From: an uncultured Chloroflexia bacterium
GTDB lineage: Bacteria > Chloroflexota > Limnocylindria > Limnocylindrales > CSP1-4
DNA: 64,000 bases
NCBI GenBank assembly: GCA_963707215.1
Contig: CAVPPB010000003.1
Location: 448,001-512,000, forward strand
Reading direction: 5' to 3'
Shown: one piece after another, positions 33,159 to 50,651 of the stretch
How the letters are laid out: each line of letters starts with the position of its first letter
How positions within the stretch are numbered: position 1 is the stretch's first letter
Made by a program: the position numbers and the translations under genes
Notes under the pieces: generated by a model
Told to the model about the DNA's origin: nothing
What the model saw: the letters and a program-made list of their open reading frames with translations, nothing else
Database searches by the model: none

Positions 33159-33343
33159 GAAAACTCCTCTACTCGGTAGCCGCGATCCGCTCGTTTTCTC
33201 GCGATCACCGTGAGAGGAGCCGAGTGCGTCGACAGGCTAGCCATTCCTGACCGCGGGCGTTTCCCGCGGCGTGCAGCGGAGCATACGGCGCCGTCGTGGC
33301 CTGCACAAGTGGTTTCCTGCCCGTCCGATGGTCCGGTCCTGGG

Positions 33344-33583
33344 TCAGGATCGACGGGTCGCCGCTCGCCAGAGGACCGATGCGGTCCCGACGACCAGCAC
33401 GATGATGGCCAGCGGGGTATCGAGGACGACGCTCCGGAGGTCGCCGGGCAGCAGATCCGTCAGCAGGGCCGCCCCGAGGACGACCGCCACCACGAGCAGC
33501 CCCACGAGGAGGACCTCGGGCCACCCGGGCGCCCGACCCGTGGCGTCGGCGGGCCGGCCATCGTCACCAGGAGCCTGGCTCAC
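33344..33583 (-). CDS. Small 2-TM membrane protein
   Basis: Two hydrophobic helices; GTGA coupling with nnrE. Confidence 0.7.
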   Translation of the reverse strand: MSQAPGDDGRPADATGRAPGWPEVLLVGLLVVAVVLGAALLTDLLPGDLRSVVLDTPLAIIVLVVGTASVLWRAATRRS

Positions 33584-34395: not shown

Positions 34396-34427
34396 CGGGC
34401 ACAGCGTATCGCGTGCCGCAGGTGGGC

Positions 34428-35438: not shown

Positions 35439-35489
35439 CGCGGTCGAGCCTAGCAGGTACCCTGCTGTCCACAGCGGGAGGGCGATGAG

Positions 35490-36407
35490 ATGCGATTCGG
35501 GGCCGCGTTCTGGGTCCAGCGGACCGACTGGCCGAGCCTGCGCGATGCGGTGCTCGAGGCCGAGGCGGCCGGCTTCGATTCCCTCTGGATCGACGACCAC
35601 CTCCTGTGCGATGAGGGCGACTGGACCTCGGGCAAGCTCGAGGGCTGGGGCGTCGCCTCGGCACTCGCTTCCCTGACCGCGCGGGCCACGATCGGGCACC
35701 TCGTCGTGGCCAACACCTTCCGCAACCCCGGGATCACGGCCAAGCAGGCCGTGACCCTCGACCACCTGAGCGGCGGGCGAGCCGTGCTGGGCATCGGCGG
35801 CGCCTGGTTCGAGCGCGAGCACGAGGCATTCGGGATCGAATTCGGGAGCGGCTTCGGCGAGCGGCTCGATCGGCTCGCCGAGGCGGTCGAGATCATCAGC
35901 CGGCTCCTGGCCGGCGAGCGCCTCCACTACGACGGACGCTTCTACTTGATGCGAGACGCCCTCTGCGCGCCCGGTCCGATCCAGCCGAAGCTGCCTATCC
36001 TCATCGGTGGTTCCGGACCGAGGAAGACGCTGCCGCTGGTCGCTCGCTATGCCGACCTCTGGAACGCCTATGGCACGCCTGCCGAGCTGGCCGCGAAGGA
36101 CGCTCTGCTGCAGGAACGGTGCGCCGACATCGGGCGGGATCCATCCACGATCGAGCGCATGGTCAACCACAACGTCGTGATCCGCGACGATCCGGCCTCG
36201 GCGGAGGCCGCCTGGGACGAGTGGGTGCGGACCGGGGTCGATGCCGAGGAGCGCGTCCTCATCGGCGGTCCCCCCGTCCGCATCGCGGAGGCCCTCCGTC
36301 CGTACGTCGAGGTCGGCTTCGACCACGTCGTCTGGATCCTCCGCTCCCCTTGGGACCTGGAGACGATCCGTCGCCTGCCAGAGGTCCGGGCCGCCCTCGA
36401 GCCCTGA
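35490..36407 (+). CDS. LLM-class (probably F420-dependent) oxidoreductase
   Basis: GFDSLWIDDH, NTFRNP, LDHLSGGR..LGIG and ILIGGSG...ARYADLWN. Confidence 0.9.
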   Translation: MRFGAAFWVQRTDWPSLRDAVLEAEAAGFDSLWIDDHLLCDEGDWTSGKLEGWGVASALASLTARATIGHLVVANTFRNPGITAKQAVTLDHLSGGRAVLGIGGAWFEREHEAFGIEFGSGFGERLDRLAEAVEIISRLLAGERLHYDGRFYLMRDALCAPGPIQPKLPILIGGSGPRKTLPLVARYADLWNAYGTPAELAAKDALLQERCADIGRDPSTIERMVNHNVVIRDDPASAEAAWDEWVRTGVDAEERVLIGGPPVRIAEALRPYVEVGFDHVVWILRSPWDLETIRRLPEVRAALEP

Positions 36408-36551
36408 CGAGCCGCGCGATCTCACGCGGCGGTGCGCCCACGCACCGCCCGCCGGATGCCCCGTCGCCGCCGGGCCATCGGTCCCGGGACGGCGGGCCGT
36501 CCGGCCCGGCCCTACGGGACCCCTCGGCAGCATCCCGCTCCGGTGGTTGCG

Positions 36552-36591
36552 GTGAAGATTTCGAGCGATTTGACGCGCTTGAGCGGGTCGA
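36552..36591 (+). promoter_or_regulatory. Array of five (T/G)(T/C)GA-N5 direct repeats at exact 9-bp period (candidate operator)
   Basis: GTGA 36552, TCGA 36561, TTGA 36570, TTGA 36579 and TCGA 36588, just upstream of SD GGAGG (36611). Confidence 0.5.
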
Positions 36592-36620
36592 CCGCTCGGC
36601 GGACCGACGCGGAGGCAGCC

Positions 36621-37337
36621 TTGGCGCCGACCGGCCAGCATCCCGCCACCCCCGATCAATGGCTGTCCATCCGCGAGGCGGCCGACCTGATCGGCGTCTC
36701 GCCGGCCACCCTGCGACGCTGGAGCGACGCTGGGGAGATCGAGGCCTTCACGACCCCCGGCGGCCACCGCCGCTTCTCGCGCCGAGCCGTCGAGGCGATG
36801 CTCCCGGCGGCCGAGGGCACCCGGTCTGTCCGCGAGATGGGCGTCACCCCAGAACGACTGGCGCGGATCTACCACCGCCTGGCCAACCGCATGGTCGCCG
36901 ACACACCCTGGGCAAGGGCACTCGACAGCGCGCAGCGAGGGCCCTACCGCGAGCATGGCCGGCGGATCGGCAGCGCGCTCGTCTACTACCTCGATGCTCC
37001 CGACGAAGTGTCGCGGGAGGCGGCCATCGTCATCGCCGAAGAGGCCTGTCGCGAGTACGGCCGGCTGGCGGCCGAGGACGGTTCCGGCCTCGCCGAAGCG
37101 ATCGAGCTGTTCATGCGCTTCCGGATGGTCTTCCTCCGGGAGATGACCTCGCTGGCCCGGCGACACGCCCTCGACATCGTCGAGGCGACGAGCCTCCTCG
37201 AGTCCACCCACCGAGCCTTCGATCGCCTGCTCCATGCGATCCTCGTCGCCTACCAGGCGAACGCGTCCCCGGCCATCGCGGCCTCGCCCACGGACGAGCC
37301 CAGCGTCCCGGCCTCGAACGGGCGGGGTCCGCGATGA
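36621..37337 (+). CDS. Excisionase/BldC/MerR-like HTH regulator with C-terminal globin-like helical sensor domain
   Basis: WLSIREAADLIGVSPATLRRW...TPGGHRRF; all-helical C domain (YGRLAAEDG..LAEAIELF). TTG start with GGAGG 5 nt upstream. Confidence 0.8.
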   Translation: MAPTGQHPATPDQWLSIREAADLIGVSPATLRRWSDAGEIEAFTTPGGHRRFSRRAVEAMLPAAEGTRSVREMGVTPERLARIYHRLANRMVADTPWARALDSAQRGPYREHGRRIGSALVYYLDAPDEVSREAAIVIAEEACREYGRLAAEDGSGLAEAIELFMRFRMVFLREMTSLARRHALDIVEATSLLESTHRAFDRLLHAILVAYQANASPAIAASPTDEPSVPASNGRGPR

Positions 37338-38545
37338 CCGACCTGCTCGAGCGCCCCGTCGAGGGCGCGACACCCGCCGGGCTGCAGGCCCCCTGGCGGC
37401 GCTCCACCGTCGTGGCCTTCGTGGCCCACGCCCGTGACGTCGCCAGCCCGGATCGGGAAGCCTTCGCCGAGCGTCTGGCCGCCGAGGCCCCGAGCGAGGG
37501 CGCGATCGTCGTCCACACCTGCCACCGCGTCGAGCTCTACGTCGCCCCGGCCGCATGGGGCGAGCGGCCGCTGCCGTCACTGCCCGACGGCACCCGGACG
37601 CTCGACGACGTCGCCGCCGCCCGTCACCTGATCGAGGTCGCCTGCGGGCTCGACAGCGCCGTGATCGGCGAGGACCAGATCCTGCACCAGCTCCGCGAGA
37701 CCGTCGCCGAGCGCCACTCGACCTTCCCCCTTGAGCCGGTCCTCGACCGGCTCTTCCAGGCGGCGCTCCACGCCGGCCGCCAGGCCCACACCTGGTTCAG
37801 TGGCTCCCACAGGTCCCTGGCCGACGTCGCCCTCGACCTCGTCGAGGAGCGGACCGGCGCGCTCCATGACCGTCCGATCCTGGTCGTCGGGGCCGGCCGG
37901 ATGGGGCGCCTTGCCGCCTTCGCGGCGTCGCGCCGCGGCGGCCACGTCCACATCAGCAATCGACACGAGGACCGGGCCGAGGCCCTGGCCCACGACACCG
38001 GCGGTCGCGTGGTGCCGTGGGGAGGCGTCCCCCTCGACCCGGCTCCGGCGGGCATCGTGCTCGCCATCGGCGGCGCATGGCAGGTCGACCGAGAGGGCTT
38101 GACGGAGCTGCTCGAGGGCAGCGCCGTCGTGGTCGACCTGTCATCGCCGGCCGCCATCGGAGACGACGTCCAGGCGGCCCTGGCCGGACGCTACGTGTCC
38201 GTCGACGAGCTGGCCGAGACACCCGAGGCGACGCTCCCCGGCCGCCTGCGTCGACGGCTCGACACGCTCGTGTCGGAGACCGGCCGAGAGTACTGCCAGT
38301 GGCTCCGGAGCCGCGAGAGCGCACCGGCGATCCGGGCGATGGCCGCCGCGGCCGAGGAGCGCCGGCGAGCCGAGGTCGGCTGGCTCCTTCGCCGGCTGCC
38401 CGACCTGGCCGACGATGAGCAGGCGCTCGTCGAGCAGATGACCCACCGACTCGTTGCGAGCCTGCTCCACGCCCCCTTCTCGGCGCTGAACGCCGATGCC
38501 GACGGGGAGCTCGAGCGGGCCGCCCGAGAGCTGTTCGCACTGTGA
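37334..38545 (+). CDS. hemA: Glutamyl-tRNA reductase
   Basis: TCHRVELY, GLDSAVIGEDQIL, VVGAGRMG and the C-terminal LLHAP dimerisation domain. Confidence 0.9.
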   Translation: MTDLLERPVEGATPAGLQAPWRRSTVVAFVAHARDVASPDREAFAERLAAEAPSEGAIVVHTCHRVELYVAPAAWGERPLPSLPDGTRTLDDVAAARHLIEVACGLDSAVIGEDQILHQLRETVAERHSTFPLEPVLDRLFQAALHAGRQAHTWFSGSHRSLADVALDLVEERTGALHDRPILVVGAGRMGRLAAFAASRRGGHVHISNRHEDRAEALAHDTGGRVVPWGGVPLDPAPAGIVLAIGGAWQVDREGLTELLEGSAVVVDLSSPAAIGDDVQAALAGRYVSVDELAETPEATLPGRLRRRLDTLVSETGREYCQWLRSRESAPAIRAMAAAAEERRRAEVGWLLRRLPDLADDEQALVEQMTHRLVASLLHAPFSALNADADGELERAARELFAL

Positions 38546-40263
38546 CCGCCATGCGTCCCCTCCGCCTCGGCACGCGCGGCAGCGCCCTGGCGCTCGCCCA
38601 GTCTGGCACGGTGGCCGACGCGCTTCGCGCGCTGGGCGCCAAGGTCGAGATCGTCCGCATCCGGACCGAGGGCGACCAGCGGCCGCCGGACACGGCCTGG
38701 GGCGAAGGGGCCTTCGTGGGTGCGCTCGAGCAGGCTCTCCTCGACGGGACGGTCGACCTCGCCGTCCACAGCGCCAAGGACGTCCCGACCACCGAGGACC
38801 CCCGGCTGACCATCGCCGCCTTCCCGGGCCGGGAGGATCCGCGGGACGCCCTGGTGATCGGCGGCGCCGGCGGCTCGCTGGAGTCCCTCCCGGACGGTGC
38901 CAGGGTCGGGACCGACAGTCCCCGCCGATCGGCCTTCCTGCTGGCCCGACGACCGGACCTGCGGCTCCATCCGCTCCACGGCAACGTCGACACGCGGCTC
39001 CGCCGGCTCGCGTCGGGCGAGACCGACGCCCTGGTCCTGGCCGTGGCCGGGCTCACCAGGCTCGGTCTCGCCGAGCGGATCTCGGAGGTCCTCCCGCCTG
39101 AGACCGTGCCGCCGGCCCCCGGTCAAGGCTCGCTGGCGATCCAGTGCCGGTCCGACGACCAGGCGACCCTTGCCTGGGTCCGACGTCTCGACGACGCGGA
39201 CACCCGGGCTGCGGTCGAGGCCGAGCGGACGTTCCTGCGCGCCAGCGGCGGCGGCTGCCGGGCGCCCATCGGCGCGCTGGCCGAGGTCCGCGACGGGACC
39301 CTGACGCTCTCCGCCGGCTCGGCCGGGCCGACCTGGCCGGATGCCGAGCAGCCGGGTGGGCGGGCACCCGTGGTGGCCCGAGGCGAGGTCGCGGGGCCGG
39401 TCGGCGACCGCCTGGCGCTGGCTGCCTCGCTGGCGGTCCGCCTTGCCGACGAGCTCGCGAGCCACCTGCCGCCCGAGCCCGCCAGCCGAGCGCTCCATCG
39501 TGCGGCCCCGCGCGTCCTCGTGACCCGGGCGGTCGAGCAAGCCGGCCCGCTGGTCGCCGCCCTGGAGGAGCGCGGCCTGGACGTGGTCGCCGTCCCGACG
39601 ATCGAGCTCCGCCCCGCGATCCCGGGCGGCGAGCTCGACGACGCCGTCGCAGGCCTCGGCGAGTACCGCTGGGTCGTCGTCACCTCGGCCAACGGTGCCA
39701 GCGCGATCCTCGACGCCGCCGGACGCGTGGGCATCGATCCCGCCGTCGGCCGATGGGCCTCCGTCGGCAGGACCACGACCGCGGTCCTGGCTGGCAGCGG
39801 CATCGAGGTCGCCCTGACGCCGGGCAGGTCAAGCGGCGACGGTCTGGCCGACGAGCTCCCGATCTCGGCCGGCGAGCGCGTCCTGCTGGCCCGGGCCGAC
39901 ATCGCCGACGGGCGCCTGCCGGCGCGGCTGCGCGAACGAGGCGCGGTCGTCGACGAGGTCGTGGCCTACCACACCGTCGAGTCGCCCGAGGCGTCCCGGG
40001 ACCCGCTCCGCCGGGCTCTCGCCGAGGCCCGGTTCGACGCCCTGGTCTTCACCAGCGGATCGACCATCCGCGGTCTCCTGGCGCTCCTCTCACCGCAGGA
40101 GCGGCGCATCGTCCTCCGCGCGCTCGCCTGCTGCATCGGCCCCACCACTGCCCGCGAGGCCCGCGAGGCCGGCTTCGGGCGGATCGTCGAGGCGCCGATG
40201 CAGACCGCCACCGCCCTGGCCGACACGATCGTCGGCGCCGTCCGAGACGAGGTACCCGCATGA
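38542..40263 (+). CDS. hemC: Fused hydroxymethylbilane synthase / uroporphyrinogen-III synthase (HemC-HemD)
   Basis: [25 protein letters not shown] and GGGC; then VLVTRA, TSANG, AYHT, FTSGST and CIGPTT. Confidence 0.93.
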
Positions 40264-41300
40264 GCAGCAAGGTGATGGAGCGGCCCGCGCTCCTCGGTGA
40301 TCAGGCCCATGTCCCGGACCCGGCCCATCGGCTCCGCCGCCTCCGCCGGTCGCCCCAGCTGCGGGCGCTGGTCCGGGAGACGCGACCGGATCCACGCCAG
40401 CTGATCGCTCCCCTGTTCGTGCAGCCCGGACGGGCGGTCCGCGACCCCATCTCCTCGCTTCCTGGCGTCTCCCGGCTCTCCCCGGACGAGGCCGTCGCGG
40501 AGGCCCGTCGGCTTGCCGCGCTGAGGGTCGGCGGGATCATCCTGTTCGGCCTGCCGGAGGGCAAGGACGGCGACGGGAGCGGCGCCTGGATCGCCGATGG
40601 GATCATCCAGGACACGCTGGCCCGCCTCCGCGACGAGGACCCCGACCTGGTCCTCGTCGCCGACACCTGCCTCTGCGAGTACACCGACCACGGCCACTGC
40701 GGACCGCTCCTGGCCGACGGCCGGGTCGACAACGACGCCGCCATCGCCCTGCTGGCCGAGACCGCCGTCTCGCAGGCACGGGCCGGGGCCGACATCGTCG
40801 CGCCGAGCGCGATGATGGACGGTCAGGTGGCGGCCATCCGGGCCGGCCTGGACAGCGCCGGCTTCCCCGACACGGCCATCCTGGCCTATGCCGCCAAGAC
40901 GGCTTCGGCCTTCTACGGTCCGTTCCGCGAGGCGGCCGACTCGGCCCCCGCCTTCGGCGATCGGCGCGGCTACCAGCTGGACCCGGCCAACCGGCGCGAG
41001 GCGATGCGCGAGATGACCGTCGACCTCGACGAGGGCGCCGACGCGCTCCTGGTCAAGCCGGCGATGCCGTCGCTCGACATCCTGGCGGCAGCTCGAGCGC
41101 GCTTCGAGGTCCCGATCGCGGCCTACCAGGTGAGCGGCGAGTACGCCCAGATCGAGGCCGCCGCTCGGCTCGGCTGGATCGACCGCCGCCGGACCCACCT
41201 CGAGGCGCTGACCTCGATCGTCCGGGCCGGGGCGGGGATGGTCATCACCTATGCGGCCGCGGATCTCGCCGCCTGGCTGCGGGACGGGATCGAGGCGTGA
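40260..41300 (+). CDS. hemB: Porphobilinogen synthase
   Basis: [34 protein letters not shown] and YQVSGEY. Confidence 0.96.
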
Positions 41301-42583
41301 CCGTGACCACCAACGGCCGGCAGGCGACCCTCGTGGCGGCGGCCGAGGACCTCTTCCCGGGCGGGGTGAACAGCCCGGTCCGCGCGTTCCGCTCGGTGGG
41401 TCGGCGACCGATCGTCCTCGAGGCGGGCTCCGGGCCGAGGGTCAGGGACGCCGACGGGCACTGGTACGTCGACTTCATCGGCGCCTGGGGACCGGCCATC
41501 CTGGGGCACGCCAACCCCGCGGTCATCGAGGCGGTCCGGGCGGCGGCCCTCGACGGGTTCGCCCTCGGGGCGACGTCGCCGCGCGAGGTCGCCCTCGGCG
41601 CGGCCATCCGGTCGGCGATGCCGTCCCTGGAACGGCTCCGGTTCACCTCCTCGGGAACCGAGGCAGCCATGAGCGCGCTTCGGGTCGCGAGGGGGGCCAC
41701 CGGCAGGGACCTCGTCCTCAAGTTCGCCGGCGGCTACCACGGCCACTCCGACAGTCTCCTCGTCGAGGCGGGGTCGGGCGTCGCCACCCTGGCCCTCCCC
41801 GGCAGCGCCGGAGTCCCGGCCGCCATGGCCGCCGGGACCATCGTCGTGGAGTTCAACGACCTCGAGGCGGTCCGAGCGGCCTTCGCGACCTATCCGGGCC
41901 GCATCGCGGCCGTCATCGTCGAGCCGGTGGCGGCGAACGTCGGGGTGATCCCGCCGGCGCCCGGCTTCCTGGAGGGCCTCCGCGAGGTCACGGCGGCGGA
42001 CGGCGCCCTGCTCGTCTTCGACGAGGTCATCACCGGCTTCCGGGTCGCCCACGGCGGGGCGCAGGCCCGCTTCGGCATCAGGCCGGACCTGACCGTCCTC
42101 GGCAAGATCATCGGTGGCGGGATGCCGATCGGGGCCTACGGCGGGCGCCACGAGCTGATGGACCTGGTCGCCCCGGTGGGGCCCGTTTACCAGGCCGGGA
42201 CGCTGTCCGGGCATCCGATCACGATGGCAGCCGGCACGGCCACCCTGGCCATGCTCGACGGCTCCGTCTACGAGCGGCTCGAGGCAAGCGGGGCGAGGCT
42301 GGAGGCGGAGCTCGCCGACGCGGCAGAGACGGCAGGGCGGACGATCGCCATCACTCGCGTCGGGGCGCTCCTCACCGTCTTCTTCCGGCCGACCCGACCC
42401 GTCTCGAGCGCCGAGGCGATGGCCTCCGACCGGGACGCCTTCGCCCGCTTCTTCGGGGCGATGCTGGACCGCGGCATCCTCCTGCCGCCGTCGCCGTTCG
42501 AGGCCTGGTTCATCTCCCTCGCCCATGACGGCGCCGCCCTCGACGAGACGATCGCGGCGGCCCGGGAGGCCTTCGCGGCATGA
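41297..42583 (+). CDS. hemL: Glutamate-1-semialdehyde 2,1-aminomutase
   Basis: [32 protein letters not shown] and YQAGTLSG. Confidence 0.97.
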
Positions 42584-43674
42584 GCGGTGACGCGACGATG
42601 GCTGCGCCGATCAGCGGGAGCCCGACCGATCGCCGCGCCGAGCCTCGGGCGACGCGCTACCTCCGGGCCACCCGCCGCGAGCCGGTCGACACGACACCGG
42701 TCTGGTTCATGCGCCAGGCCGGCCGGGCCCTGCCCGAGTTCCGGGCCGTCCGGAAGACCGCCTCGCTGGTCGAGATCACCCGCGACCCGGCCCTCTGCGC
42801 CGAGGTGACCCTGCAGCCGGTCCGTCGGCTGGGGGTCGACGCTGCGATCCTCTTCGCGGACATCACCACCCCGCTGGCCGGGCTCGACGTGGCCTTCGAC
42901 ATCAAGCCCGGGGTGGGCCCGGTCATCGATCGGCCGGTCCGCACCCCGGCCGATCTCGCGGCCCTCCGCCCCTTCGAGCGGGATGCCCTCAAGCCGCTCT
43001 TCGAGGCCATCAGCCTCATCCGCGCCGAGAGCCCGGTCCCCCTCATCGGCTTCGCCGGCGCGCCGTTCACCCTTGCCTGCTACCTGGTCGAAGGCGGTCC
43101 CTCGCGGCAGTTCCTGCGGACCCGGACCCTGATGCGCTCGGAGCCGGCCCTGTGGACCGGGCTGATGGACCGGCTCGTCGCCATGACGATCGAGTACCTG
43201 GGTGCCCAGGTCGAGGCCGGCGCCCAGGCCGTCCAGCTCTTCGACTCCTGGGTCGGCGACCTCGGGCCGCGCGACTACGAGCGCCACGTCGCGCCGTGGA
43301 TGCGGCAGCTCTTCGACGGCCTGGTCCCGCTCGGGGTGCCGACCACCCATTTTGGCGTCGGGACCGCGGGGCTGCTGGCCCTCCAGGCCGCTGCCGGCGG
43401 CGACGTCATCGGGCTCGACTGGCACGTGACGCTGGCGGACGGCTGGGGGCTGGTCGGCGACCGCGCGGTCCAGGGCAACCTCGACCCGTCACTGCTCCTC
43501 GGCCCGTTCGAGGACGTCGCCGAAACGTCGCGCTGGATCCTGGACCAGGCCGCCGGCCGGCCCGGCCACGTCTTCAACCTGGGGCACGGCGTGCTGCCCG
43601 ACACCGACGCCGACGACCTCCGCCGGCTCGTCGACCTCGTCCACGACCACCGCCCGCCAAGGAGCGTCCCATGA
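42580..43674 (+). CDS. hemE: Uroporphyrinogen decarboxylase
   Basis: PVWFMRQAGR, DAAILFADI, QLFDSW, QGNLDP and FNLGHG. Confidence 0.97.
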   Translation: MSGDATMAAPISGSPTDRRAEPRATRYLRATRREPVDTTPVWFMRQAGRALPEFRAVRKTASLVEITRDPALCAEVTLQPVRRLGVDAAILFADITTPLAGLDVAFDIKPGVGPVIDRPVRTPADLAALRPFERDALKPLFEAISLIRAESPVPLIGFAGAPFTLACYLVEGGPSRQFLRTRTLMRSEPALWTGLMDRLVAMTIEYLGAQVEAGAQAVQLFDSWVGDLGPRDYERHVAPWMRQLFDGLVPLGVPTTHFGVGTAGLLALQAAAGGDVIGLDWHVTLADGWGLVGDRAVQGNLDPSLLLGPFEDVAETSRWILDQAAGRPGHVFNLGHGVLPDTDADDLRRLVDLVHDHRPPRSVP

Positions 43675-44627
43675 CCACCGACCCCCGACCGGCCGTGCTC
43701 CTCATGGCCTACGGCAGCCCCGATCGGCTCGACCAGGTCGAGGCGTACTACACCGACATCCGCCGCGGCAACCCGCCCCCACCCGAGCTGCTCGAGGAGC
43801 TCCTCGAGCGATACCGCGCGATCGGTGGCGGCTCGCCGCTCTCCGGGATCGTCGAGCGCCAGCGAGCCGCCCTCGAGGCCGAGCTCGCCCGACGCGGCAG
43901 CCCGGTCCCCGTCTACGCCGGCATGCGCCACATCGAGCCGCGGATCGGGGCGATGGTGGGCCGGATGGTCGACGACGGGATCGACGGGTTCGTGGCCATC
44001 GCCCTGGCACCTCAGCGCTCCTCGAACGCCGCCGGCTACCGCCGGGCTGTCGAGGGGCGACTCGCCGACGCGGAGGGCGGGCCGAGCTACCGGATCGTCG
44101 GATCGTGGCACGACGAGCCCTGCTTCATCGAGGCCCTCGCCGCGGCGACCCGGACGGCGCTCGAGCGGACCGCCGACCCGACGACGGCCCGGGTGATCTT
44201 CACCGCCCACAGCCTGCCGACCCGCGTCGTCGCGGAGGGAGACACCTATCCGCAGGAGCTGGCCCGAACGGCCGCCCTCGTGGCCGATCGGCTCCACCTC
44301 GACCGCTACGAGTTCGCTTTCCAGAGCGCCGGGAGGACCGGCGAGCCCTGGCTCGGTCCGGACCTCCGGGACGAGCTGCGGCGACTCGCCAAGGACGGCG
44401 TCTGCGAGGTCGTCGTCTGCCCGGTGGGTTTCGTGGCCGATCACCTCGAGGTGCTCTACGACATCGACATCGAGGCGCGCGCGGTCGCCGATGAGCTCGG
44501 CCTCCGCCTGGAGCGGGCGCCCTCGATGAACGACGACCCGACCTTCATCGCCGGCCTGGCCGACGTCGCCGAGCGGGCGCTCGGCGAGCTGCCGTCCGGC
44601 ACCACCACGGGCGCCGGGGTCGCCTGA
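43671..44627 (+). CDS. hemH: Coproporphyrin ferrochelatase (CpfC/HemH, monoderm type)
   Basis: LLMAYGSP, FTAHSLP, QSAG...PWLGP and GFVADHLEVLYDID. Confidence 0.95.
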   Translation: MTTDPRPAVLLMAYGSPDRLDQVEAYYTDIRRGNPPPPELLEELLERYRAIGGGSPLSGIVERQRAALEAELARRGSPVPVYAGMRHIEPRIGAMVGRMVDDGIDGFVAIALAPQRSSNAAGYRRAVEGRLADAEGGPSYRIVGSWHDEPCFIEALAAATRTALERTADPTTARVIFTAHSLPTRVVAEGDTYPQELARTAALVADRLHLDRYEFAFQSAGRTGEPWLGPDLRDELRRLAKDGVCEVVVCPVGFVADHLEVLYDIDIEARAVADELGLRLERAPSMNDDPTFIAGLADVAERALGELPSGTTTGAGVA

Positions 44628-44630
44628 GCC

Positions 44631-45839
44631 ATGACGACAGGAACCAGGCCGACGATGGCCGCGCAGACCGCTCACGTACCGACGCACCCCGGTGGACATC
44701 CCGGTGGTCACCCGGGCGGACATCCGGGCGGGCACCCGGCTGCCGTCGGGGCGGTCAAGCCGGACGGCTACGTCTACGGCCGCGCTCCGATGCTGGTCTA
44801 CTGGGAGACGACCCTCTCCTGCGGCCTCACCTGCCGCCACTGCCGGGCCACGGCGATGCCGGAGCGGAGCCCCGAGGAGCTGACCAGCGAGGAAGGCTTC
44901 GGGCTGCTCGATCGGATCCTGGGCTTCGGGCGTCCCTTCCCCCACGTGGTCTTCACCGGCGGGGATCCCCTTCGGCGCCCGGATCTCGAGACCCTCGTCG
45001 AGGCCGCCACCGAGCGCGGCATCGGCGCCTCGCTGGCGCCGGCGGCGACCGACGAGCTGACGCTGGAGCGGCTGGCCCGCCTGAAGGCGGCCGGCATCCA
45101 GACGATGTCGCTCTCGATCGACGGGTCGGACGCCGAGCGCCACGATGGCTTCCGGGGCGTTCCCGGCACCTTCGACAAGACGCTCCTGGCGGCCCGCTGG
45201 GCCCACGAGGTCGGCTTGCCGCTCCAGATCAACACCCTCATCACCGACGAGACGCTGTCCGACCTGCCGGCGGTCTACGAGCTGATGACGACGCTCGGGA
45301 TCATCCGCTGGAGCCTCTTCTACCTGATCAGCGTCGGCCGGGGTACCGACCTGCGCGAGATCACGGCGGCCGACTCCGAGCGCCTCAACGGCTGGTTCTA
45401 CGACCTGTCCAGGGAGGCCCCGTTCATCATCAAGACGACCGAGGCGACCCATTACCGGCGGGTCGCCATCCGGCGGATGACCGCGGACGGTCTCGACGAG
45501 GACGCCATCGCCGCGACCTCGGTGGGGCGCGGGTTCGGGGTCCGCGACGGCAACGGGATCATGTTCGTGGCTCACGATGGCTGGGTCTACCCGTCCGGCT
45601 TCCTGCCCGTGCGGACCGGCAACGTCCGGACCGACGACATCGTCGAGCTCTATCGGCAGCACCCCGTCTTCACCGGCCTCCGCGACGTCAGCGCCTTCAA
45701 GGGCCGCTGCGGGCGCTGCGAGTACGCCGAGGTCTGCGGCGGGTCGCGGGCCCGGGCCTTCGCCTGGACGGGCGACTACCTCGAGTCCGATCCGCTCTGC
45801 CCGTACGTGCCGCCGTCGGCGCCCGGCGCGGAGCACTGA
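44631..45839 (+). CDS. Radical SAM/SPASM protein (AhbD/NirJ-like, TIGR04053-type) with N-terminal HPGG repeats
   Basis: WETT..CGLTCRHCRA, FTGGDP, C-terminal CGRC...CGGSRARA...DPLC. Confidence 0.88.
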   Translation: MTTGTRPTMAAQTAHVPTHPGGHPGGHPGGHPGGHPAAVGAVKPDGYVYGRAPMLVYWETTLSCGLTCRHCRATAMPERSPEELTSEEGFGLLDRILGFGRPFPHVVFTGGDPLRRPDLETLVEAATERGIGASLAPAATDELTLERLARLKAAGIQTMSLSIDGSDAERHDGFRGVPGTFDKTLLAARWAHEVGLPLQINTLITDETLSDLPAVYELMTTLGIIRWSLFYLISVGRGTDLREITAADSERLNGWFYDLSREAPFIIKTTEATHYRRVAIRRMTADGLDEDAIAATSVGRGFGVRDGNGIMFVAHDGWVYPSGFLPVRTGNVRTDDIVELYRQHPVFTGLRDVSAFKGRCGRCEYAEVCGGSRARAFAWTGDYLESDPLCPYVPPSAPGAEH

Positions 45840-45861
45840 GCGGACCGGCCGGGACCCATCG

Positions 45862-47591
45862 ATGACCGTCCTCGTCGTCGGCGGAGGCATCACCGGTCTG
45901 GCGACTGCCCATGCCCTGGGCGCCGCCGGGGTGCCGACGCTGCTCGTCGAGGGGTCCGACCGGCTCGGCGGCAAGGTCCGGACCGACCGGACCGAGGGGT
46001 TCCTGGTCGAGTCCGGGCCGGACTCCTTCATCAGCTATCGGCCGGCCGGCCTGGAGCTGTGTCGCGAGCTCGGCCTGGCCGAGGCGGTCATCCGGCCGGT
46101 CGAGCCGCGGACGGTGACGGTCCGGATCGGCGAGCGGTTCGTTCGCCTGCCCGACGGGATGGGCCTGGTCCTGCCGACCCGGATGCGGCCGTTCGTGACC
46201 AGCCGGATGTTCTCGCCGCTGGAGAAGGCCAGGATGGGCCTGGACCTCGTCCTGCCGCGTCGACTCGACGGCACCGACGTCGCCGTCGGGCCCTTCCTTC
46301 GGGGTCGTCTCGGCGGCGCCCTCGTGGAGCGCCTGGCCGGCCCGCTCATCGGCGGCGTCTACGGCACGCCGATCGACGAGCTCAGTCTCGACGCCGTCGT
46401 CCCCCAGCTCCGCGAGGCCGAGCGCGACCACCGCAGCCTGCTGCTGGCCAGCCTGGCCCAGGGGCGGGCTCGGCGCAGGTCCGGCGCGCCGGCCGGCTCC
46501 CCGTTCGTCAGCCTCGCCGGCGGACTCGGCCAGCTCACCGACGCCCTGGTGGCGACGCTCTGGGACTCGCCCCAGGTGGCCCTTCGCACGGGCACGAGCG
46601 TCGTCGGCCTGGAGCGCTCCGGCGGGCACCTGGCCGCGATCCTGGCCGGCGCCGAGCGGCTGGAGGTGGACGGCGTCGTGCTGGCGTCGCCCGCGGCCGT
46701 CTCGGCCGACCTCGTCGAGGACCTCGCGCCGGACGCAGCGACCCACATCCGCTCGATCCCCCACGGCTCGACCGGCGTGGTGACCGTCGCCTACCGCGCC
46801 GACCAGCTGCCCGGTCCCCTCGTGGGGCACGGCTTCCTGGTCGCCGAGGGCGAGCCGCTCGCCATCAGCGCCTGCACCTGGTCCTCGAACAAGTGGCCGG
46901 ACCGGGCGCCCGAGGGCCACGTCCTCCTGCGGGCCTTCATCGGGTCGCCGGGCGAGCGCCTTCTCGGCCGGCCCGACCGACGACGTGCTGGCGGCCGTCC
47001 GGCGGGACCTCGAGGTGACGATGGGCGTCCACGGGGCAACCGGTCCTCGCCCGCGTGTCGCGCTTCAGCGAGTCGATGCCCCACTACACGGTCGGCCACC
47101 TGGGGCGGGTCGCGGCCGCCGACGACGCCCTCGCTGCAGTGCCGGGCCTGGTTCTGGCCGGCGCCGCCTTCCGGGGCGTCGGCATCCCCGACTGCATCGC
47201 CGGGGGCCGCGGCGCCGCCAGGGCCATCCAGGCCCACCTCGGCGGCGGCGCGACCCGGTCGACGGCCGCGACGGGGACGGGGATCGCCACGGGCGCCAGC
47301 CGCGGCCGCGATGGTGGCACTCCCGACGGCAGAGCCCCGACACCGCTCGACTCCCTGCCCGTGGGCGCCACCGGCACGGTCGCCGTCGTGGCGAGCGCCC
47401 ATCGCGACGAGCTCGCCTCCGAGGGTCTCCGCCCCGGCGTCCGGGTCGGCCTGGAGGCCGCGGCGCCCGTCGGCGGACCGCTGGTGATCTCGGTGGGGCG
47501 GGCTCGCGTCGCCGTGGCCCGCTCGGTCGCCAGGACGGTCCTCGTCGCCCCGAGTGAGCGGATCTCGGACGGCGCCCCGGCCGACCCGTGA
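45862..47591 (+). CDS. hemY: Coproporphyrinogen III oxidase (HemY/CgoX) fused to a C-terminal FeoA domain; two frameshifts at ~46978 and ~47030-47040
   Basis: VVGGGITGL, ESGPDSF, CTWSSNKWP. ORF 47055..47591 carries MPHYTVGH...GVGIPDCI followed in frame by LDSLPVG...GLRPGVRV...APVGGPLVISVGRARVAV (FeoA). Confidence 0.85.
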
Positions 47592-49576
47592 TCGCCCTGC
47601 ACCCCGGCCACCGTCCGCCCGCCGGGGAGGACCAGGCGAGCCCGGATCGCCCACTGTCCATCGCCTTCGTGGGGCGCCCGAACGTCGGCAAATCCACGTT
47701 CGTCTCGCGGGCCGGCGGGCGCTACGTCGAGACGGTCAACGCGCCAGGCACGACCGTCACCGCCGAGCGGGTCCCGGTCCGGCTGGGCGGTCAGGCCGTG
47801 GAGCTCGTGGACCTGCCCGGAACCCGGTCGCTCGTCGACACGCCGGCCGGCAGCGATCCGTTCTGGGCCCAGCTGCTGGGGACCCAGCCCGACGCCATCG
47901 TGGTCGTCGCCGACGCCGGCGACCTGGCCCGGCACCTGCCGCTGGTGCTGGCCTGCCGGGATCTCGGCCTGCCGGTCGTGCTCGCCGCGAACCTCGCCGA
48001 CGAGGCTGCCGAGGCGGGCATCGAGCTCGACGAGACGGCGCTCTCGCAGCTGCTCGTGGCGCCGGTCCACCTGACGGTCGGGCGGACCGGGCACGGGGTC
48101 GACGCGGTCATGGCCGACGCCGTGCGCCTGGCCTCCCGGCGTCGAGCCGTCCGCGAGGGCACCGCCGAGCCACGGGGTACCGTCCCGGCCCAGCCGTACC
48201 CGCCGTCGCTCGACGCACACCTGGCGGCGACCGCCCGTGACCTGGGCCACAGCCACTCGCTGGGAGCCGCGACGGTCGATGCGACCAGCATGGAGCCCTT
48301 CGTCGCCGATCGGACGATCTCGCCACGAGGTGCGGCCTCGATCCGCCTCGCCGACCTGTTGGAGCCGGAGCGCTGGCGGATCGGCGCCGAGTGGGCCGAC
48401 CGCGTGGAGTCGCGACGCGCCGTACGGGCACCCCGGCGCGAGGCCCTGACCCGACTCGCAACGGTGCCATGGCCCGGGCTGCCGCTCTTCCTCGCCGTCG
48501 CCCTCGGCTCGTTCGCCGCCATGGTCGTCGTGGGGGGCTGGCTCTCGGCCCTCCTGGCGGAGGTCTGGGCGGCGACGATCTCGCCGCTGCTGACCACGAT
48601 CATCGGGACGCTGGTGCCCCTGCCGGCGCTCGCCTCGGCGCTCGAGTGGGCGCTCGACGGCGGGCTCCTGGCGATGGTCTCGGTCGGCATCCCCTACGTG
48701 CTCGTCTTCTACGTGATCCTGGCCGCCCTCGAGGACTCCGGCTACCTGACCAGCGCGGCCGTCCTCCTCGACCGCGTCTTCAACGTCCTGGGCCTGCCCG
48801 GCCGAGCGGCGATCCCGCTCCTGAGCGCGGCCGGATGCAACGTGCCGGCCGTCTACGGCACCCGGGTGCTCCCGACGCAGCGCGAACGGCTCCTCGGCGG
48901 CTTCCTGGTCACCCTGACTCCCTGCTCCGCCCGGTCGGCCGTGGTCATCGCCGCCCTGGCCCCGGTCGCGGGGATCGGCGCGGCCTTCGCCGCCTTCGCC
49001 GTGGTGCTGGCGCTCACGCTGGGGGCCGGCCTGGCCGCCAACGCGGTCGTGCCCGGACGCCAACCGGCCCTCGTCCTCGAGCTGGCACCCCTCCGGACGC
49101 CGGTGCCGGCCAACGTCGCCCGCAAAGCCTGGCGGCGCTTCCGCTCCTTCGTCCTCGTCGCCACGCCGATCATGGTCGTCGGCTCGTTCGTCGTCGGGCT
49201 GCTCTACGAGAGCGGCCTGTGGGCAGACCTCGCGACGCTGGTCGAGCCCGTCACGATGGGCCTGCTGGGGCTGCCGGCGATCGCCGGGATCGCCATCGCC
49301 TTCGCCTTCCTGCGCAAGGAGCTGGCGCTCCAGTTGCTGGTCGCGCTCGCCATCGTCCAGTACGGCGCCGCCATGGCCGAGCCGGGCGCCTTCCTCTCGC
49401 CGGCCCAGCTGTTCGTCTTCGCGATCGTCACGTGCGTGTCGATCCCCTGCGCGGCGACCCTGGCGGCGCTGGCCGGCGAGTTCGGACGCCGCACCGCACT
49501 CGCCATGAGCGCCGCGACCGTGGGGCTGGCCCTCGGGGCCGGCGCCATCGTGGCCCGCGTCCTCGCGATCGCCTGA
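47588..49576 (+). CDS. feoB: Ferrous iron transporter FeoB
   Basis: GRPNVGKS, NAPGTTV, DLPG and NLAD G-motifs; LEDSGY, GCNVPA, PCSAR and IPCAAT in the membrane domain. Confidence 0.95.
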   Translation: MIALHPGHRPPAGEDQASPDRPLSIAFVGRPNVGKSTFVSRAGGRYVETVNAPGTTVTAERVPVRLGGQAVELVDLPGTRSLVDTPAGSDPFWAQLLGTQPDAIVVVADAGDLARHLPLVLACRDLGLPVVLAANLADEAAEAGIELDETALSQLLVAPVHLTVGRTGHGVDAVMADAVRLASRRRAVREGTAEPRGTVPAQPYPPSLDAHLAATARDLGHSHSLGAATVDATSMEPFVADRTISPRGAASIRLADLLEPERWRIGAEWADRVESRRAVRAPRREALTRLATVPWPGLPLFLAVALGSFAAMVVVGGWLSALLAEVWAATISPLLTTIIGTLVPLPALASALEWALDGGLLAMVSVGIPYVLVFYVILAALEDSGYLTSAAVLLDRVFNVLGLPGRAAIPLLSAAGCNVPAVYGTRVLPTQRERLLGGFLVTLTPCSARSAVVIAALAPVAGIGAAFAAFAVVLALTLGAGLAANAVVPGRQPALVLELAPLRTPVPANVARKAWRRFRSFVLVATPIMVVGSFVVGLLYESGLWADLATLVEPVTMGLLGLPAIAGIAIAFAFLRKELALQLLVALAIVQYGAAMAEPGAFLSPAQLFVFAIVTCVSIPCAATLAALAGEFGRRTALAMSAATVGLALGAGAIVARVLAIA

Positions 49577-49652
49577 CCCCGGCGACCGACCGCGCCACGG
49601 GTCACCCCCGCACCACCGGACGCCCCCGTCCACGAGCCACCGCTACGGCCGC

Positions 49653-50651
49653 TCAGGCCTCCGGATCGAGAGCCGCCCGGGACCAGAGCTCGGCCGCGAT
49701 GAGCTCCACGACGGTGACCTCGACGAGGGTCCGGACCAGCGGGTCGTCGGCGCCGGGCAGGGGGATGACCAGGGCCGCCCCGTCGACCGGCGGCCCGACG
49801 ACCAGGACCTCGCCCGAACGCGAGCGCACCGTCTCGACCAACGACCGGTCGTAGGCCGTGCCCGAGAGCAGGACCATCCGGGCGCCCGGCAGAGCCGTGT
49901 AGACGCCGACGTGCGCCCAGTCGCCGGCATCCCAGGCCGTCGCCGCAAGGCGAGGGCCCTCGCGGAGCATCAGGGCCGCCTGCTCGGCGGCTCCTGGCCG
50001 CGAGGCATCGCCAACGACGTGGATCGTCTCGGCTCCATCGAGGAGATCGGCGGCCGGACCGAGCCAGCCCGCCGAGCCCGCCGTGAGCCGCTCGAGGGCG
50101 TCGACGGCCGGGCGGAGGGAGGCCACGGTCGGATCGCTGCCGGCCACCCGACCTGCCGCCAGGAGCAGCGTCGCAAGCGTCGCCAGATGGGTCCGGCAGG
50201 CGACCCCCCCTGCTTCGGGCCCGGCCAGCAGCGGCAGGACGGCATCGGCGGCATCGGCCAGCCGGGAGGTCGGCTGCTCGGTGACCGCGATGACCGGCGA
50301 GGTACCACGGTGCCGCTCGGCCGCGGCCACGGTCTCAGCGGTCCCGCCCGAGGCCGAGATGGCGACGACGATCCGGCGCGGATCCGGCGGAGCGGGCGTC
50401 GGCGTCGACGCCCACTCGACCAGGACCTCGCCGCCGCCAGCCACGATCCGGGCGGCGACCGTCAGGGCGGCGAACCGCGACGAGCCCATCCCGACGAACA
50501 ACAGTGGCGGTCGGTCGCGCCCCGCCAGGACCGACTCGAGCATCGTCGACGGCTCACCGTGCCCCTCCCAGGCATCGAGCAGGCGGGCCAGCGCGGACGG
50601 CTCGTCGAGAACGTCGCGGCGCAGGGCCGCGGCCCGGTCGATGGCCCTCAC
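49653..50651 (-). CDS. Double-SIS-domain sugar-phosphate isomerase/deaminase family protein
   Basis: FVGMGSS, AISASGGTAET and AEQAALMLREG. Confidence 0.85.
   Translation of the reverse strand: MRAIDRAAALRRDVLDEPSALARLLDAWEGHGEPSTMLESVLAGRDRPPLLFVGMGSSRFAALTVAARIVAGGGEVLVEWASTPTPAPPDPRRIVVAISASGGTAETVAAAERHRGTSPVIAVTEQPTSRLADAADAVLPLLAGPEAGGVACRTHLATLATLLLAAGRVAGSDPTVASLRPAVDALERLTAGSAGWLGPAADLLDGAETIHVVGDASRPGAAEQAALMLREGPRLAATAWDAGDWAHVGVYTALPGARMVLLSGTAYDRSLVETVRSRSGEVLVVGPPVDGAALVIPLPGADDPLVRTLVEVTVVELIAAELWSRAALDPEA

Follow-up and report, generated by a model that had tools for sequence, protein, structure and literature searches.

A conserved hem operon of Chloroflexota with a BldC-like regulator and ferrous-iron transport genes: a candidate link between heme synthesis and iron uptake

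The window analysed in this study is a stretch of 64,000 nucleotides (nt) of contig CAVPPB010000003.1 (positions 448,001 to 512,000, forward strand) from assembly GCA_963707215.1, an uncultured Chloroflexota genome designated G000 below. It harbours ten genes, all on the plus strand (36621-49576), which were recognised from open reading frames (ORFs) and from Pfam and NCBIfam matches in the order regulator-hemA-hemC-D-hemB-hemL-hemE-cpfC-radical-SAM-hemY::feoA-feoB, where radical-SAM stands for a radical S-adenosylmethionine enzyme (Table 1). The operon is real and conserved, and its enzymology is of a known kind; the regulator family and the coupling to the Feo iron transport, above all the fusion of the oxidase CgoX with a FeoA domain, appear to be undescribed. 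Heme genes, the only FeoB, an uncharacterised sensor-regulator and an enzyme-FeoA fusion stand together in this bacterium of soil or sediment, which suggests a coupling of iron uptake to heme synthesis.

The gene string and its heme-synthesis route

Since the G+C content of the window is about 74%, long spurious ORFs are frequent in it, and the genes were picked by third-position G+C content together with the Pfam and NCBIfam matches. The intergenic gaps within the string do not exceed 22 nt; the junctions comprise seven ATGA/GTGA overlaps and two gaps (3 nt and 22 nt). An Rfam search of 34000-50500 gave nothing at E 1 or better, so no known leader RNA or other RNA element was found. An earlier reading of this DNA, made from the sequence only, had proposed ten co-directional genes in this order, mostly joined by such overlaps, which together form a gene set for heme synthesis and ferrous-iron import. 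All ten genes were found on the plus strand, seven of the nine junctions are overlaps, and the Pfam and NCBIfam identities bear out the gene set.

Table 1. Genes, junctions and candidate operator of the hem-feo string (positions refer to the window; aa, amino acids; HTH, helix-turn-helix)
Feature	Positions	Strand	Details
Candidate operator, three direct repeats	36557..36586	+	GATTTCGAGC GATTTGACGC GCTTGAGCGG; 10-nt period; 35-64 nt 5' of the regulator start codon
Regulator	36621..37337	+	238 aa, TTG start; BldC/MerR-type winged HTH (aa 14-61) and predicted sensor-globin-like domain (aa ~67-216)
Regulator/hemA junction	37334-37337	+	ATGA overlap
hemA, glutamyl-tRNA reductase	37334..38545	+	Pfam GlutR_N 82 bits, GlutR_dimer 67.5 bits; TIGR01035 176.6, below cut-off 209.55
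hemA/hemCD junction	38542-38545	+	GTGA overlap
Fused hemC-hemD, hydroxymethylbilane synthase and uroporphyrinogen-III synthase	38542..40263	+	TIGR00212 286.8, above cut-off 164
hemCD/hemB junction	40260-40263	+	ATGA overlap
hemB, porphobilinogen synthase	40260..41300	+	ALAD 433 bits; NF006762 442.2, above cut-off 297
hemB/hemL junction	41297-41300	+	GTGA overlap
hemL, glutamate-1-semialdehyde 2,1-aminomutase	41297..42583	+	TIGR00713 545.5, above cut-off 527.3
hemL/hemE junction	42580-42583	+	ATGA overlap
hemE, uroporphyrinogen decarboxylase	42580..43674	+	URO-D 385.7 bits; TIGR01464 373.3, above cut-off 302.95
hemE/cpfC junction	43671-43674	+	ATGA overlap
Ferrochelatase (read as cpfC)	43671..44627	+	Pfam Ferrochelatase 270.2 bits; TIGR00109 217.4, above cut-off 124.6
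cpfC/radical-SAM junction		+	3-nt gap
Radical-SAM/SPASM enzyme, TIGR04053	44631..45839	+	449.7, above cut-off 395; Pfam Radical_SAM 66.1 bits
Radical-SAM/hemY junction		+	22-nt gap
hemY (CgoX-type oxidase) fused via variable linker to FeoA domain	45862..47591	+	frame broken twice in the assembly
hemY-feoA/feoB junction	47588-47591	+	GTGA overlap
feoB, ferrous-iron transporter	47588..49576	+	FeoB_N 109.4, Gate 89.3 (two stretches) and FeoB_C 29.7 bits, above Pfam cut-offs

On the basis of these identities the operon would hold a complete set for heme b synthesis of the coproporphyrin-dependent type. The route would lead from glutamyl-tRNA to coproporphyrinogen, which would be oxidised by HemY, supplied with iron by the ferrochelatase and decarboxylated by the radical-SAM enzyme. 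Two domains cover the hemC-hemD fusion product (Pfam Porphobil_deam, 234.4 bits, aa 7-209; HEM4, 168.4 bits, aa 337-560). The ferrochelatase is read as CpfC by its context only; the models used do not tell CpfC from PpfC, and the HemY models do not separate CgoX from PgoX.

The other known ways to the last step were sought in the genome of the window (3.26 Mb, 5 contigs). No match was found in G000 to ChdC (PF06778; the control search was positive in 7 of 14 reference genomes), to HemF (PF01218) or to the siroheme decarboxylase AhbA/B (PF17805), and a true HemN was not found either (best TIGR00538 score 98.7, cut-off 324.95), where these absences are provisional because the genome is 84.8% complete. 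A single radical-SAM gene of the NirJ/Ahb kind gave a strong match in G000, namely the TIGR04053 gene of the string, and the AhbA/B and AhbC steps which mark the siroheme-dependent (Ahb) pathway were not found there.

The Gram-positive coproporphyrin-pathway clusters (HemA/L/B/C/D/E, CgoX, CpfC, ChdC) use the same enzymes from glutamyl-tRNA to coproheme and likewise have a CgoX-type HemY adjoining the ferrochelatase. The window differs from them in that it holds no ChdC, with an AhbD-like radical-SAM gene instead, and in that a single string unites all steps with a regulator and Feo. A further difference is the host: it belongs to the Chloroflexota, judged by the titles of its relatives, whereas the available text of a 2024 review covers only Bacillota and Actinomycetota (PMC10991733).

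Conservation of the string was followed by a synteny scan with the two most conserved peptides of the regulator, one genome being taken per species. It yielded 516 confirmed stretches, of which the best 80 (79 loci) were used for regulator synteny. Most of the scanned records are titled Chloroflexota, Candidatus Limnocylindria or Limnocylindrales, and eight are Actinomycetota (Dermatophilaceae, Micrococcales and Phycicoccus among them). Among the 75 loci with at least 1 kb of downstream sequence, hemA, hemCD or hemB lies directly 3' of the regulator in 69, the six exceptions being L056, L097 and L105-L108; the synteny of the regulator with hem genes, a check which the sequence-only reading had itself named, was thus found. 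The relatives in the family of the window contributed 17 regions: nine have the same order, seven carry a distinct paralogue of the regulator with no hem gene nearby, and one (L031) has no downstream sequence. The ten-gene order itself was met again in G001, a member of the genus of the window whose genes lie on separate contigs, and in G041 and G202, which represent two further genera.

The radical-SAM enzyme and the two types of operon

The nearest characterised family of the radical-SAM enzyme is AhbD, the siroheme-dependent heme b synthase (TIGR04545, 298.4 bits, E 8e-89), followed by NirJ2 (E 7.5e-52). The CxxxCxxC motif is present in the translation as CGLTCRHC, and together with a Cys-rich C-terminus it is common to AhbD and the enzyme of the window. 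The latter differs from AhbD in that it stands in the sister family TIGR04053, scores under the AhbD equivalog cut-off of 500 and carries an N-terminal (GHPG)n tail. As the genome has no recognised ChdC, HemF, true HemN or AhbAB, the TIGR04053 enzyme is likely an oxygen-independent coproheme decarboxylase, judged from sequence; it would convert coproheme to heme b without O2, in place of ChdC. The term TIGR04053 was not found in the literature searched.

A radical-SAM enzyme at this step has precedents. The accessible part of a 2026 review describes AhbD in coproporphyrin-pathway organisms which lack the other Ahb enzymes (PMC13564367), AhbD serving such organisms is also found in the portion of PMC5095920 at hand, and according to excerpts of PMC5746218 the deletion of ahbD in Haloferax impaired anaerobic growth alone and was rescued by protoheme. 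The radical-SAM step of the window is an addition to this already known type of substitution in the coproporphyrin pathway.

The distribution of the two decarboxylase genes was determined in 61 genomes of the family. ChdC was found in 25 and the radical-SAM gene in 18 of them, both occurring together in 12 and the radical-SAM gene alone in 6 (G000, G001, G004, G015, G018 and G042). The genes follow distinct operon layouts. In the ChdC-type operons chdC lies inside the operon and adjoins hemB in all four examined (G024, G003, G002, G019), in three of which it sits between hemB and hemL, and none of the four has a radical-SAM gene. In the radical-SAM-type operons the radical-SAM gene stands 3' of cpfC and is followed by hemY, so that it lies between cpfC and hemY in all seen. 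We also considered ChdC and the radical-SAM enzyme as plain alternatives to each other; this was ruled out by the 12 of 61 genomes with both.

The assignment as decarboxylase has to be weighed against the supposition that the radical-SAM enzyme works elsewhere, heme being made by an unrecognised enzyme or the pathway ending at coproheme. We regard this as very improbable. It would accommodate the score under the AhbD cut-off, a family with neither assigned function nor literature found, the twelve relatives with ChdC and the TIGR04053 gene together, and the His-Pro-Gly repeat tail, which is otherwise unexplained. It would leave without reason that AhbD is by far the closest characterised family, that the gene is held between cpfC and hemY in each radical-SAM-type operon seen, and that six genomes with the radical-SAM gene gave no ChdC; the other Ahb enzymes, moreover, were not found in G000.

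Several observations on these proteins and operons should be recorded. The N-terminus of the radical-SAM protein (its first ~45 codons) consists of four to five copies of HPGG and precedes the TIGR04053 match; the (GHPG)n tail, variable in length, is kept in nearly all operon-linked radical-SAM homologues of the related loci and could bind metal or heme. Adjacency of chdC to hemB is seen in the ChdC-type operons of L017, L019, L022 and L023 (G003, G024, G002 and G019) and of L082, L085, L101 and L102. Directly 5' of cpfC, several ChdC-type operons carry an additional UroD-like gene with 46-49% identity to hemE. Two ChdC-type genomes (G003, G024) gave no HemY match, so the coproporphyrinogen oxidase is not recognised there. 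A second ferrochelatase-like gene occurs in L061, L071, L111, L119 and L020 (the last in G007), either past the divergent feoB or 5' of the regulator, with about 34-35% identity where listed (L020, L119); in G007 it adjoins a chdC copy 3' of the operon.

A BldC-like regulator, its predicted sensor domain and its candidate operator

The start codon of the regulator gene is most likely TTG 36621, and not GTG 36552 as previously read, which adjoins the candidate operator. The protein starting at TTG 36621 is identical (100%) to a database protein (P0001), its N-terminus aligns with those of 31 homologues, and GGAGG stands 6 nt 5' of this codon. The regulator was rightly read earlier as neither Fur nor DtxR: Pfam, NCBIfam, Foldseek and a PDB profile search agree on an HTH of the BldC/MerR type. 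The Pfam scores are 48.1 bits for HTH_17 and 40 bits for MerR (cut-off 28.2; HTH part only), the profile search matched the HTH to BldC (6ama, E 4.8e-10), and Foldseek aligned it with 6ama/6amk with a template modelling (TM) score of 0.78-0.83, a root-mean-square deviation (rmsd) of 0.9-1.1 and 38-40% identity; the score against the BldC subfamily model NF033787 is 47.7, below its cut-off of 77. Classical MerR regulators have a coiled-coil dimerisation helix behind the HTH and act on a palindrome within a long-spacer promoter. Here the model has only a short helix (aa 54-60) at that place, the Pfam MerR match covers the HTH only, and neither a palindromic site nor a sigma-70-like promoter was found. 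The HTH is shared with Streptomyces BldC (40% identity, TM 0.80, rmsd 1.0 over 48 columns). BldC, however, is a 68-residue single domain without effector, whereas the regulator adds a sensor domain of ~150 aa (238 aa in total). The family is large: of the 8000 candidates scored, 1044 proteins reach E 1e-5 or better. Its best 120 homologues measure 211-270 aa, and the most specific name among them is 'excisionase family DNA binding protein'.

In a quick maximum-likelihood tree the paralogue is split off (support 100) from three hem-linked clades, which track the type of operon. Clade 1 (support 96) holds the window, the other operons with feo genes at the 3' end and the Actinomycetota, clade 2 (support 95) the remaining radical-SAM-type operons, and clade 3 (support 83) the ChdC-type operons. 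The paralogue (L025-L030, L032) precedes a protein of ~350 aa with no Pfam match, then an EamA transporter, an alpha/beta hydrolase and a nucleotidyl transferase. The typical regulator-hem order was also seen in L043, L049, L074 and L080, from metagenome-assembled genomes (MAGs) titled Verrucomicrobiia, Methylomirabilota and Sulfomarinibacteraceae; in the quick tree their regulators nest within Chloroflexota, and they may be mis-binned contigs.

Upstream of the gene, direct repeats recur in the related loci at the same place as the three repeats of the window, for example GGTTTGGGG GATTTGGGA GGTTTCGCG, with the pattern RRTT[TC][GC]. The core GATTTG occurs in 58 of 91 upstream segments of 130 nt (0.005 expected per segment), and of all its 116 occurrences over 2.8 Mb, a total that includes the two strands of the loci, 68 fall within these segments. 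After three duplicate genomes were dropped, pairs of the pattern in the remaining 88 segments were spaced by 9 nt (n = 29), 10 nt (n = 17) or 18 nt (n = 9); the controls gave no pair on the antisense strand and one pair in segments lying 200-340 nt upstream. An additional site stands ~190 nt upstream in 13 of the 28 radical-SAM-type loci. Scanned over the whole genome, the tandem repeat pattern has eight matches, that of the operon itself at 36557 included. An automated direct-repeat search of 36400-36660 returned no family; the operator repeats are short and degenerate and rest on the pattern counts given here. As many loci have the repeats placed 3' of a TAnnAT-like hexamer and 5' of the start codon, we infer that they form an autoregulatory operator.

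The part of PMC5859096 at hand describes BldC as binding 9-bp direct repeats, AATTXXXX(C), head-to-tail, natural sites including GATTTCCCC and CATTTGCAC. These sites resemble the candidate repeats, which have an AT core and a spacing of 9-10 nt, and binding is in the present case a prediction: the regulator would bind the direct repeats head-to-tail, as BldC does, and thereby control its own operon.

The sensor part was compared with 48,161 chains by VIA-align, on an AlphaFold2 model built from 32 sequences (predicted local distance difference test, pLDDT, 82.3). For aa 67-216 the best match was pXO2-61 (3pmc; Z 14.2, rmsd 2.2, 132 of 132 residues), where it should be considered that helical models can reach Z of about 14 through arrangement alone. 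It was followed by the N-fragment of Rv2242 (9fb1, Z 12.0), a Moorella stressosome sensor (3zta, Z 11.8), DosC (Z 11.0), BpeGReg and AfGcHK (Z 10.3 each), and the N-domain of RsbR (2bnl) and GsGCS (Z 10.2 each). The matches to the globin-coupled sensors (DosC, BpeGReg, AfGcHK, GsGCS) span 128-136 residues, and phycobiliproteins and photocobilins match at Z 8-11 as these sensors do. Taken as a whole, the sensor globins (DosC, BpeGReg, AfGcHK and HemAT; RsbR, pXO2-61 and Rv2242) match the predicted fold at Z 8.7-14.2 over 120-136 residues. A Foldseek search of the regulator against the PDB returned nothing at E 0.001 or better. Because of this negative result and the behaviour of helical models, a sensor-globin-like fold of the C-terminal domain is likely, as judged from the model, but not certain. 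At the level of predicted fold the label 'HTH-globin' given in the sequence-only reading is right.

At the sequence level the domain stands apart from the sensor globins, with no significant match to the Pfam globin or RsbR families. Its ~150 residues match no Pfam family (RsbRD_N appears in 1 of 32 members, at E 0.073), and in the ESM Atlas it retrieved nothing but Chloroflexota clusters of its own kind, which carry the HTH as well, at values of 0.82-0.86 (below the guide value of 0.9). HTH_17-globin architectures are known in another globin family according to the accessible part of a photoglobin survey, which also mentions a fatty-acid-binding globin sensor (PMC8717448).

As to the ligand, the sensor-globin-like domain would take a small hydrophobic or carboxylate molecule, most plausibly heme or a porphyrin intermediate. 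Among the 32 homologues no histidine of the sensor part is invariant or nearly so, the sole invariant histidine of the family being H49 in the HTH wing, which makes classical heme ligation by this domain unlikely; unlike the heme globin-coupled sensors, the regulator has no proximal histidine and carries its HTH output N-terminal to the sensor. The missing histidine, together with the non-heme nature of the nearest structural neighbours (3pmc at Z 14.2, the Rv2242 N-fragment at 12.0, RsbR-type domains at 10-12), also favours another possibility, namely that the regulator controls the operon while its sensor responds to a fatty acid, an acyl-CoA, a redox signal, a partner protein or some further cue that is not a tetrapyrrole. 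Domains of the pXO2-61 type bind fatty acids, and the paralogous clade precedes unrelated genes. Such a sensor is an unlikely alternative, but one that deserves serious weight. What opposes it is the tight conservation of the regulator-hem order (69 of 75 loci), the capacity of globin-like folds to bind heme and bilins too (the matches at Z 8-11), and a set of near-invariant arginines (R82, R86, R110, R166, R168, R180 and R181, alignment numbering), which would suit propionate groups.

Regulators dedicated to heme synthesis exist elsewhere. Streptomyces rex-hemACD is another hem cluster with a regulator of its own, and to our knowledge no iron transporter lies within rex-hemACD or within the HemKR cluster of Leptospira. 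In the latter a dedicated regulator is encoded with the heme-synthesis genes, as here (PMC11426443, available text). HemKR is a two-component system and Rex is Rex, whereas the regulator of the window combines a BldC-like HTH with a globin-like sensor. For the regulation of the coproporphyrin pathway, Table 3 of the 2024 review lists only HemX, HrrSA/ChrSA, DtxR, PerR, IdeR and SpxA1, and the available text expects that more regulatory schemes are probably still to be found (PMC10991733). No description of an HTH-globin hem regulator was found in a literature search. The genome contains three Fur-family matches and two DtxR-type matches over the cut-off elsewhere, and these proteins may be co-regulators of the operon.

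The Feo genes, the CgoX::FeoA fusion and the proposed coupling of iron to porphyrin supply

FeoB of the string is the single feoB match in G000; its score against TIGR00437 is 293.6, just under the cut-off of 315.65. The G-domain, the two Gate domains and FeoB_C are shared with the FeoAB(C) systems, as is an SH3-like FeoA encoded directly 5' of feoB. The difference is that FeoA is here the C-terminal domain of a heme-pathway oxidase, and that the genes lie inside or beside a hem operon.

Two layouts of this link were found. In the first, feoB stands at the 3' end of the operon, as in the window, G001, G041, G202 and G217. The order is complete from regulator to feoB in G041, which is of another genus, and G202, which is of a third, has cpfC to feoB as far as its contig reaches; in G001 hemY::feoA and feoB lie on one contig and regulator-hemA-hemCD on another, and in G217 feoB begins ~360 nt beyond the end of the fetched hemY locus. 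G153 has the CgoX::FeoA fusion followed by a 30-residue feoB fragment only. In the second layout feoA-feoB is divergent from the operon. This was seen in 10 of the 20 radical-SAM-type loci with at least 3 kb of upstream sequence, where 455-709 nt separate the regulator from the end of the feoB match, and also in G018 and the short locus L099; of the ChdC-type loci with as much upstream sequence, 22 in number, none has feoB there. Both layouts counted, Feo genes adjoin 12 of 21 radical-SAM-type loci. As regards the other nine, the genomes of six gave no FeoB match at E 1e-20 or better, a seventh has FeoB only elsewhere and with 31% identity, in another (G226) feoB sits at the contig edge, and the last (L062) is the second of two hem operons of its genome, the other locus (L063) having divergent feoAB. 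The synteny of feoB with hem genes put forward in the sequence-only reading therefore holds for the 12 radical-SAM-type loci but not for the ChdC-type loci, nor for the feoB genes of G009 and G014, which are 58-60% identical and have no hem gene in the fetched 20 kb.

Since the two layouts occur in different regulator clades, they argue for selection rather than for an inherited accident. The limitation of the Feo link to radical-SAM-type operons suggests a low-oxygen setting with Fe2+ as the available iron. The feoB genes without hem neighbours indicate that Feo is not exclusively a heme accessory; G009 and G014 gave no ChdC, radical-SAM or HemY match. A hem-feo operon, or an operon of feoB with a ferrochelatase gene, was not found described in the literature.

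The divergent-feoA loci (L052, L063, L089 and others) have a feature of their own: a conserved TTGGTCCCT is followed after ~17 nt by CCTACTG, which ends a few bases before the feoA ATG, an arrangement that suggests a leaderless feoA transcript. Three of these loci have a TCAAGG-N3-CCTTGA palindrome between the two elements, possibly the site of another regulator.

The fusion was recognised from a Pfam Amino_oxidase match (141.6 bits, 45862-46980) and a FeoA match (47.2 bits, above the Pfam cut-off, 47022-47588). The first 373 codons match TIGR00562 (188.4, cut-off 97.85), and the C-terminal part of the oxidase matches NF008845 positions 395-465. With the C-terminal half of the G001 protein as query, 44 of the best 120 protein clusters listed combine PF01593 with PF04023 (amine-oxidase and FeoA) at 47-100% identity to the query; they are complete-looking proteins of 552-598 aa, apart from a few shorter partial calls, and those that bear a name, from Chloroflexota and Limnocylindrales MAGs, are called only protoporphyrinogen oxidase. 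Six further clusters of this list are FeoA only (222-294 aa) and look like truncated calls of the fusion gene. In the family scan the match runs through the FeoA part in G001, G153, G202, G188 and G041; G200, whose alignment reached residue 561 through a stop, was not counted, as tblastn with the FeoA part found nothing there. In the alignment of the fusion proteins the oxidase and the FeoA domain are conserved, and the linker between them varies both in length and in sequence. In an AlphaFold2 model of the 567-aa G001-type fusion the linker (462-487) has pLDDT below 50, and FeoA (~490-560) has 10-residue block means mostly of 83-91, with one of 75; a disordered linker and a well-predicted FeoA fit a tethered, independently folded domain. 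No description of a FeoA-oxidase fusion was found in the literature.

It could be argued that Feo is a general iron importer which stands beside hem by chance, and that CgoX::FeoA arose from a lost stop codon and is functionally meaningless. The variable, predicted disordered linker is in line with this, FeoB as the only one of the genome must serve general iron needs too, a similar feoB stands without hem neighbours in G009 and G014, and 9 of 21 radical-SAM-type loci have no adjacent feoB. Chance is nevertheless improbable in our view, given that the linkage is present in two layouts and two regulator clades and in none of the 22 ChdC-type loci, and that the fusion is kept down to 47% identity in 44 listed clusters from at least three genera (g1, g26, g46); where one genome has an orthologous feoB and a radical-SAM-type operon, they are adjacent in each resolved case, G226 being at a contig edge.

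Two extra bases, unnoticed in the sequence-only reading, break the frame of the fusion gene in the assembly. One lies near 46981 and the other near 47038/9, 57 nt apart, and the frame passes from 1 to 2 to 0: the oxidase frame reaches ~46980, ~19 codons (..DDVLAAVRRDLEVTMGV..) follow in the next frame, and the remainder including FeoA is in the third frame up to the stop at 47591. G001, of the same genus, has neither extra base, and the C-terminal half of its oxidase, the linker and FeoA form one open frame overlapping feoB. Logan contigs from four estuary metagenome runs were compared over 46300-47700, their longest pieces differing by ~2.5% from the window; the base at 46981 is missing in all four runs and that at 47038/47039 in all three covering runs. 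Because the extra bases are absent from G001 and from the public contigs, the breaks are quite probably assembly errors.

That hemY::feoA is instead a real pseudogene of this strain, the pathway being broken at the oxidase step, has a low probability in our estimation. A local loss would agree with the spacing of the two one-base insertions in the deposited sequence (57 nt), with the unbroken state of the nine other genes, and with the origin of the comparison contigs from similar, non-identical strains. Against it, both insertions are absent in the congener and in all covering public contigs, many split tblastn matches of the same kind occur in relatives of long-read type (for example L052, L060 and L109), and the downstream sequence keeps a coding-type third-position G+C content in the FeoA frame.

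The explanation that we favour, with moderate confidence, joins one transcript, autoregulation with a ligand, a radical-SAM decarboxylase, Feo supply and assembly errors in hemY. The ten genes would form a single transcript starting 5' of the regulator. This agrees with a consensus scan of 35400-50000, which gave neither a promoter-like site nor, on the plus strand, a terminator-like site. FeoB and the FeoA domain borne by CgoX would import Fe2+ for its insertion by CpfC and for the Fe-S enzyme, so that iron supply would track porphyrin supply, mainly in low-oxygen, Fe2+-rich habitats.

Several points stand against this explanation. We infer the co-transcription of the ten genes solely from their spacing. 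The consensus scan did not return a sigma-70-like promoter 5' of the regulator either. CgoX needs O2 and radical-SAM enzymes are O2-labile, which makes an odd pairing. The radical-SAM enzyme is below the AhbD equivalog cut-off in a family that is itself uncharacterised, twelve genomes have it together with ChdC, and the absence of other routes from G000 is provisional. The feoB genes of G009 and G014 do without hem neighbours, and the public contigs, ~97.5% identical, represent another strain, so a loss of hemY specific to the strain of the window is possible. Finally, the sensor has no invariant histidine, its nearest structural neighbours are non-heme proteins, and the ligand of the regulator is a guess.

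A further step would be that FeoA tethers CgoX, and by way of CgoX the ferrochelatase, to FeoB for direct handover of Fe2+, switched by a new class of tetrapyrrole-sensing regulators. Fe2+ would then pass through the membrane channel of FeoB straight into coproporphyrin, bypassing the free iron pool, while the non-heme globin fold would read heme or coproporphyrin and the BldC-like HTH would polymerise on the direct repeats. Mitochondria have a mitoferrin-ferrochelatase complex, of which this arrangement would be the bacterial counterpart. We consider this reading speculative and rather improbable.

The sequence-only reading had put the locus forward as an undescribed system. This applies to the regulator family and to the Feo link, for which no description was found, but not to the radical-SAM step, which is already covered by reviews. 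It is an open question in the field how bacteria keep the supply of iron in line with that of porphyrin, and a regulator family conserved in two phyla, with a predicted sensor domain and a predicted operator, offers a testable handle on it. A heme enzyme that is naturally fused with an accessory domain of iron transport hints strongly at a coupling, be it physical or regulatory, and the occurrence of ChdC-type and radical-SAM-type operons in one bacterial family provides a natural comparison. If the coupling is true, it shows how toxic free porphyrin and free Fe2+ stay in step, and it supplies parts for engineered heme production.

On the 3' side the string is followed by a SIS domain gene (49653-50651) on the minus strand, in convergent orientation, therefore the string stops at feoB; on the 5' side a luciferase-like gene (35490-36407) runs on the same strand, 213 nt from the regulator. 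Two long ORFs in the surroundings have no Pfam match at E 1e-5 or better, one flanking the operon on the minus strand (50668-52161) and one on the plus strand (33296-34558), which may be no real gene in this G+C-rich DNA. In L034, L035, L037 and L038, some of them from Actinomycetota, the gene 5' of the regulator seems, read by eye from the DNA, to encode Cys-x-x-Cys-His repeats like those of multi-heme cytochromes c.

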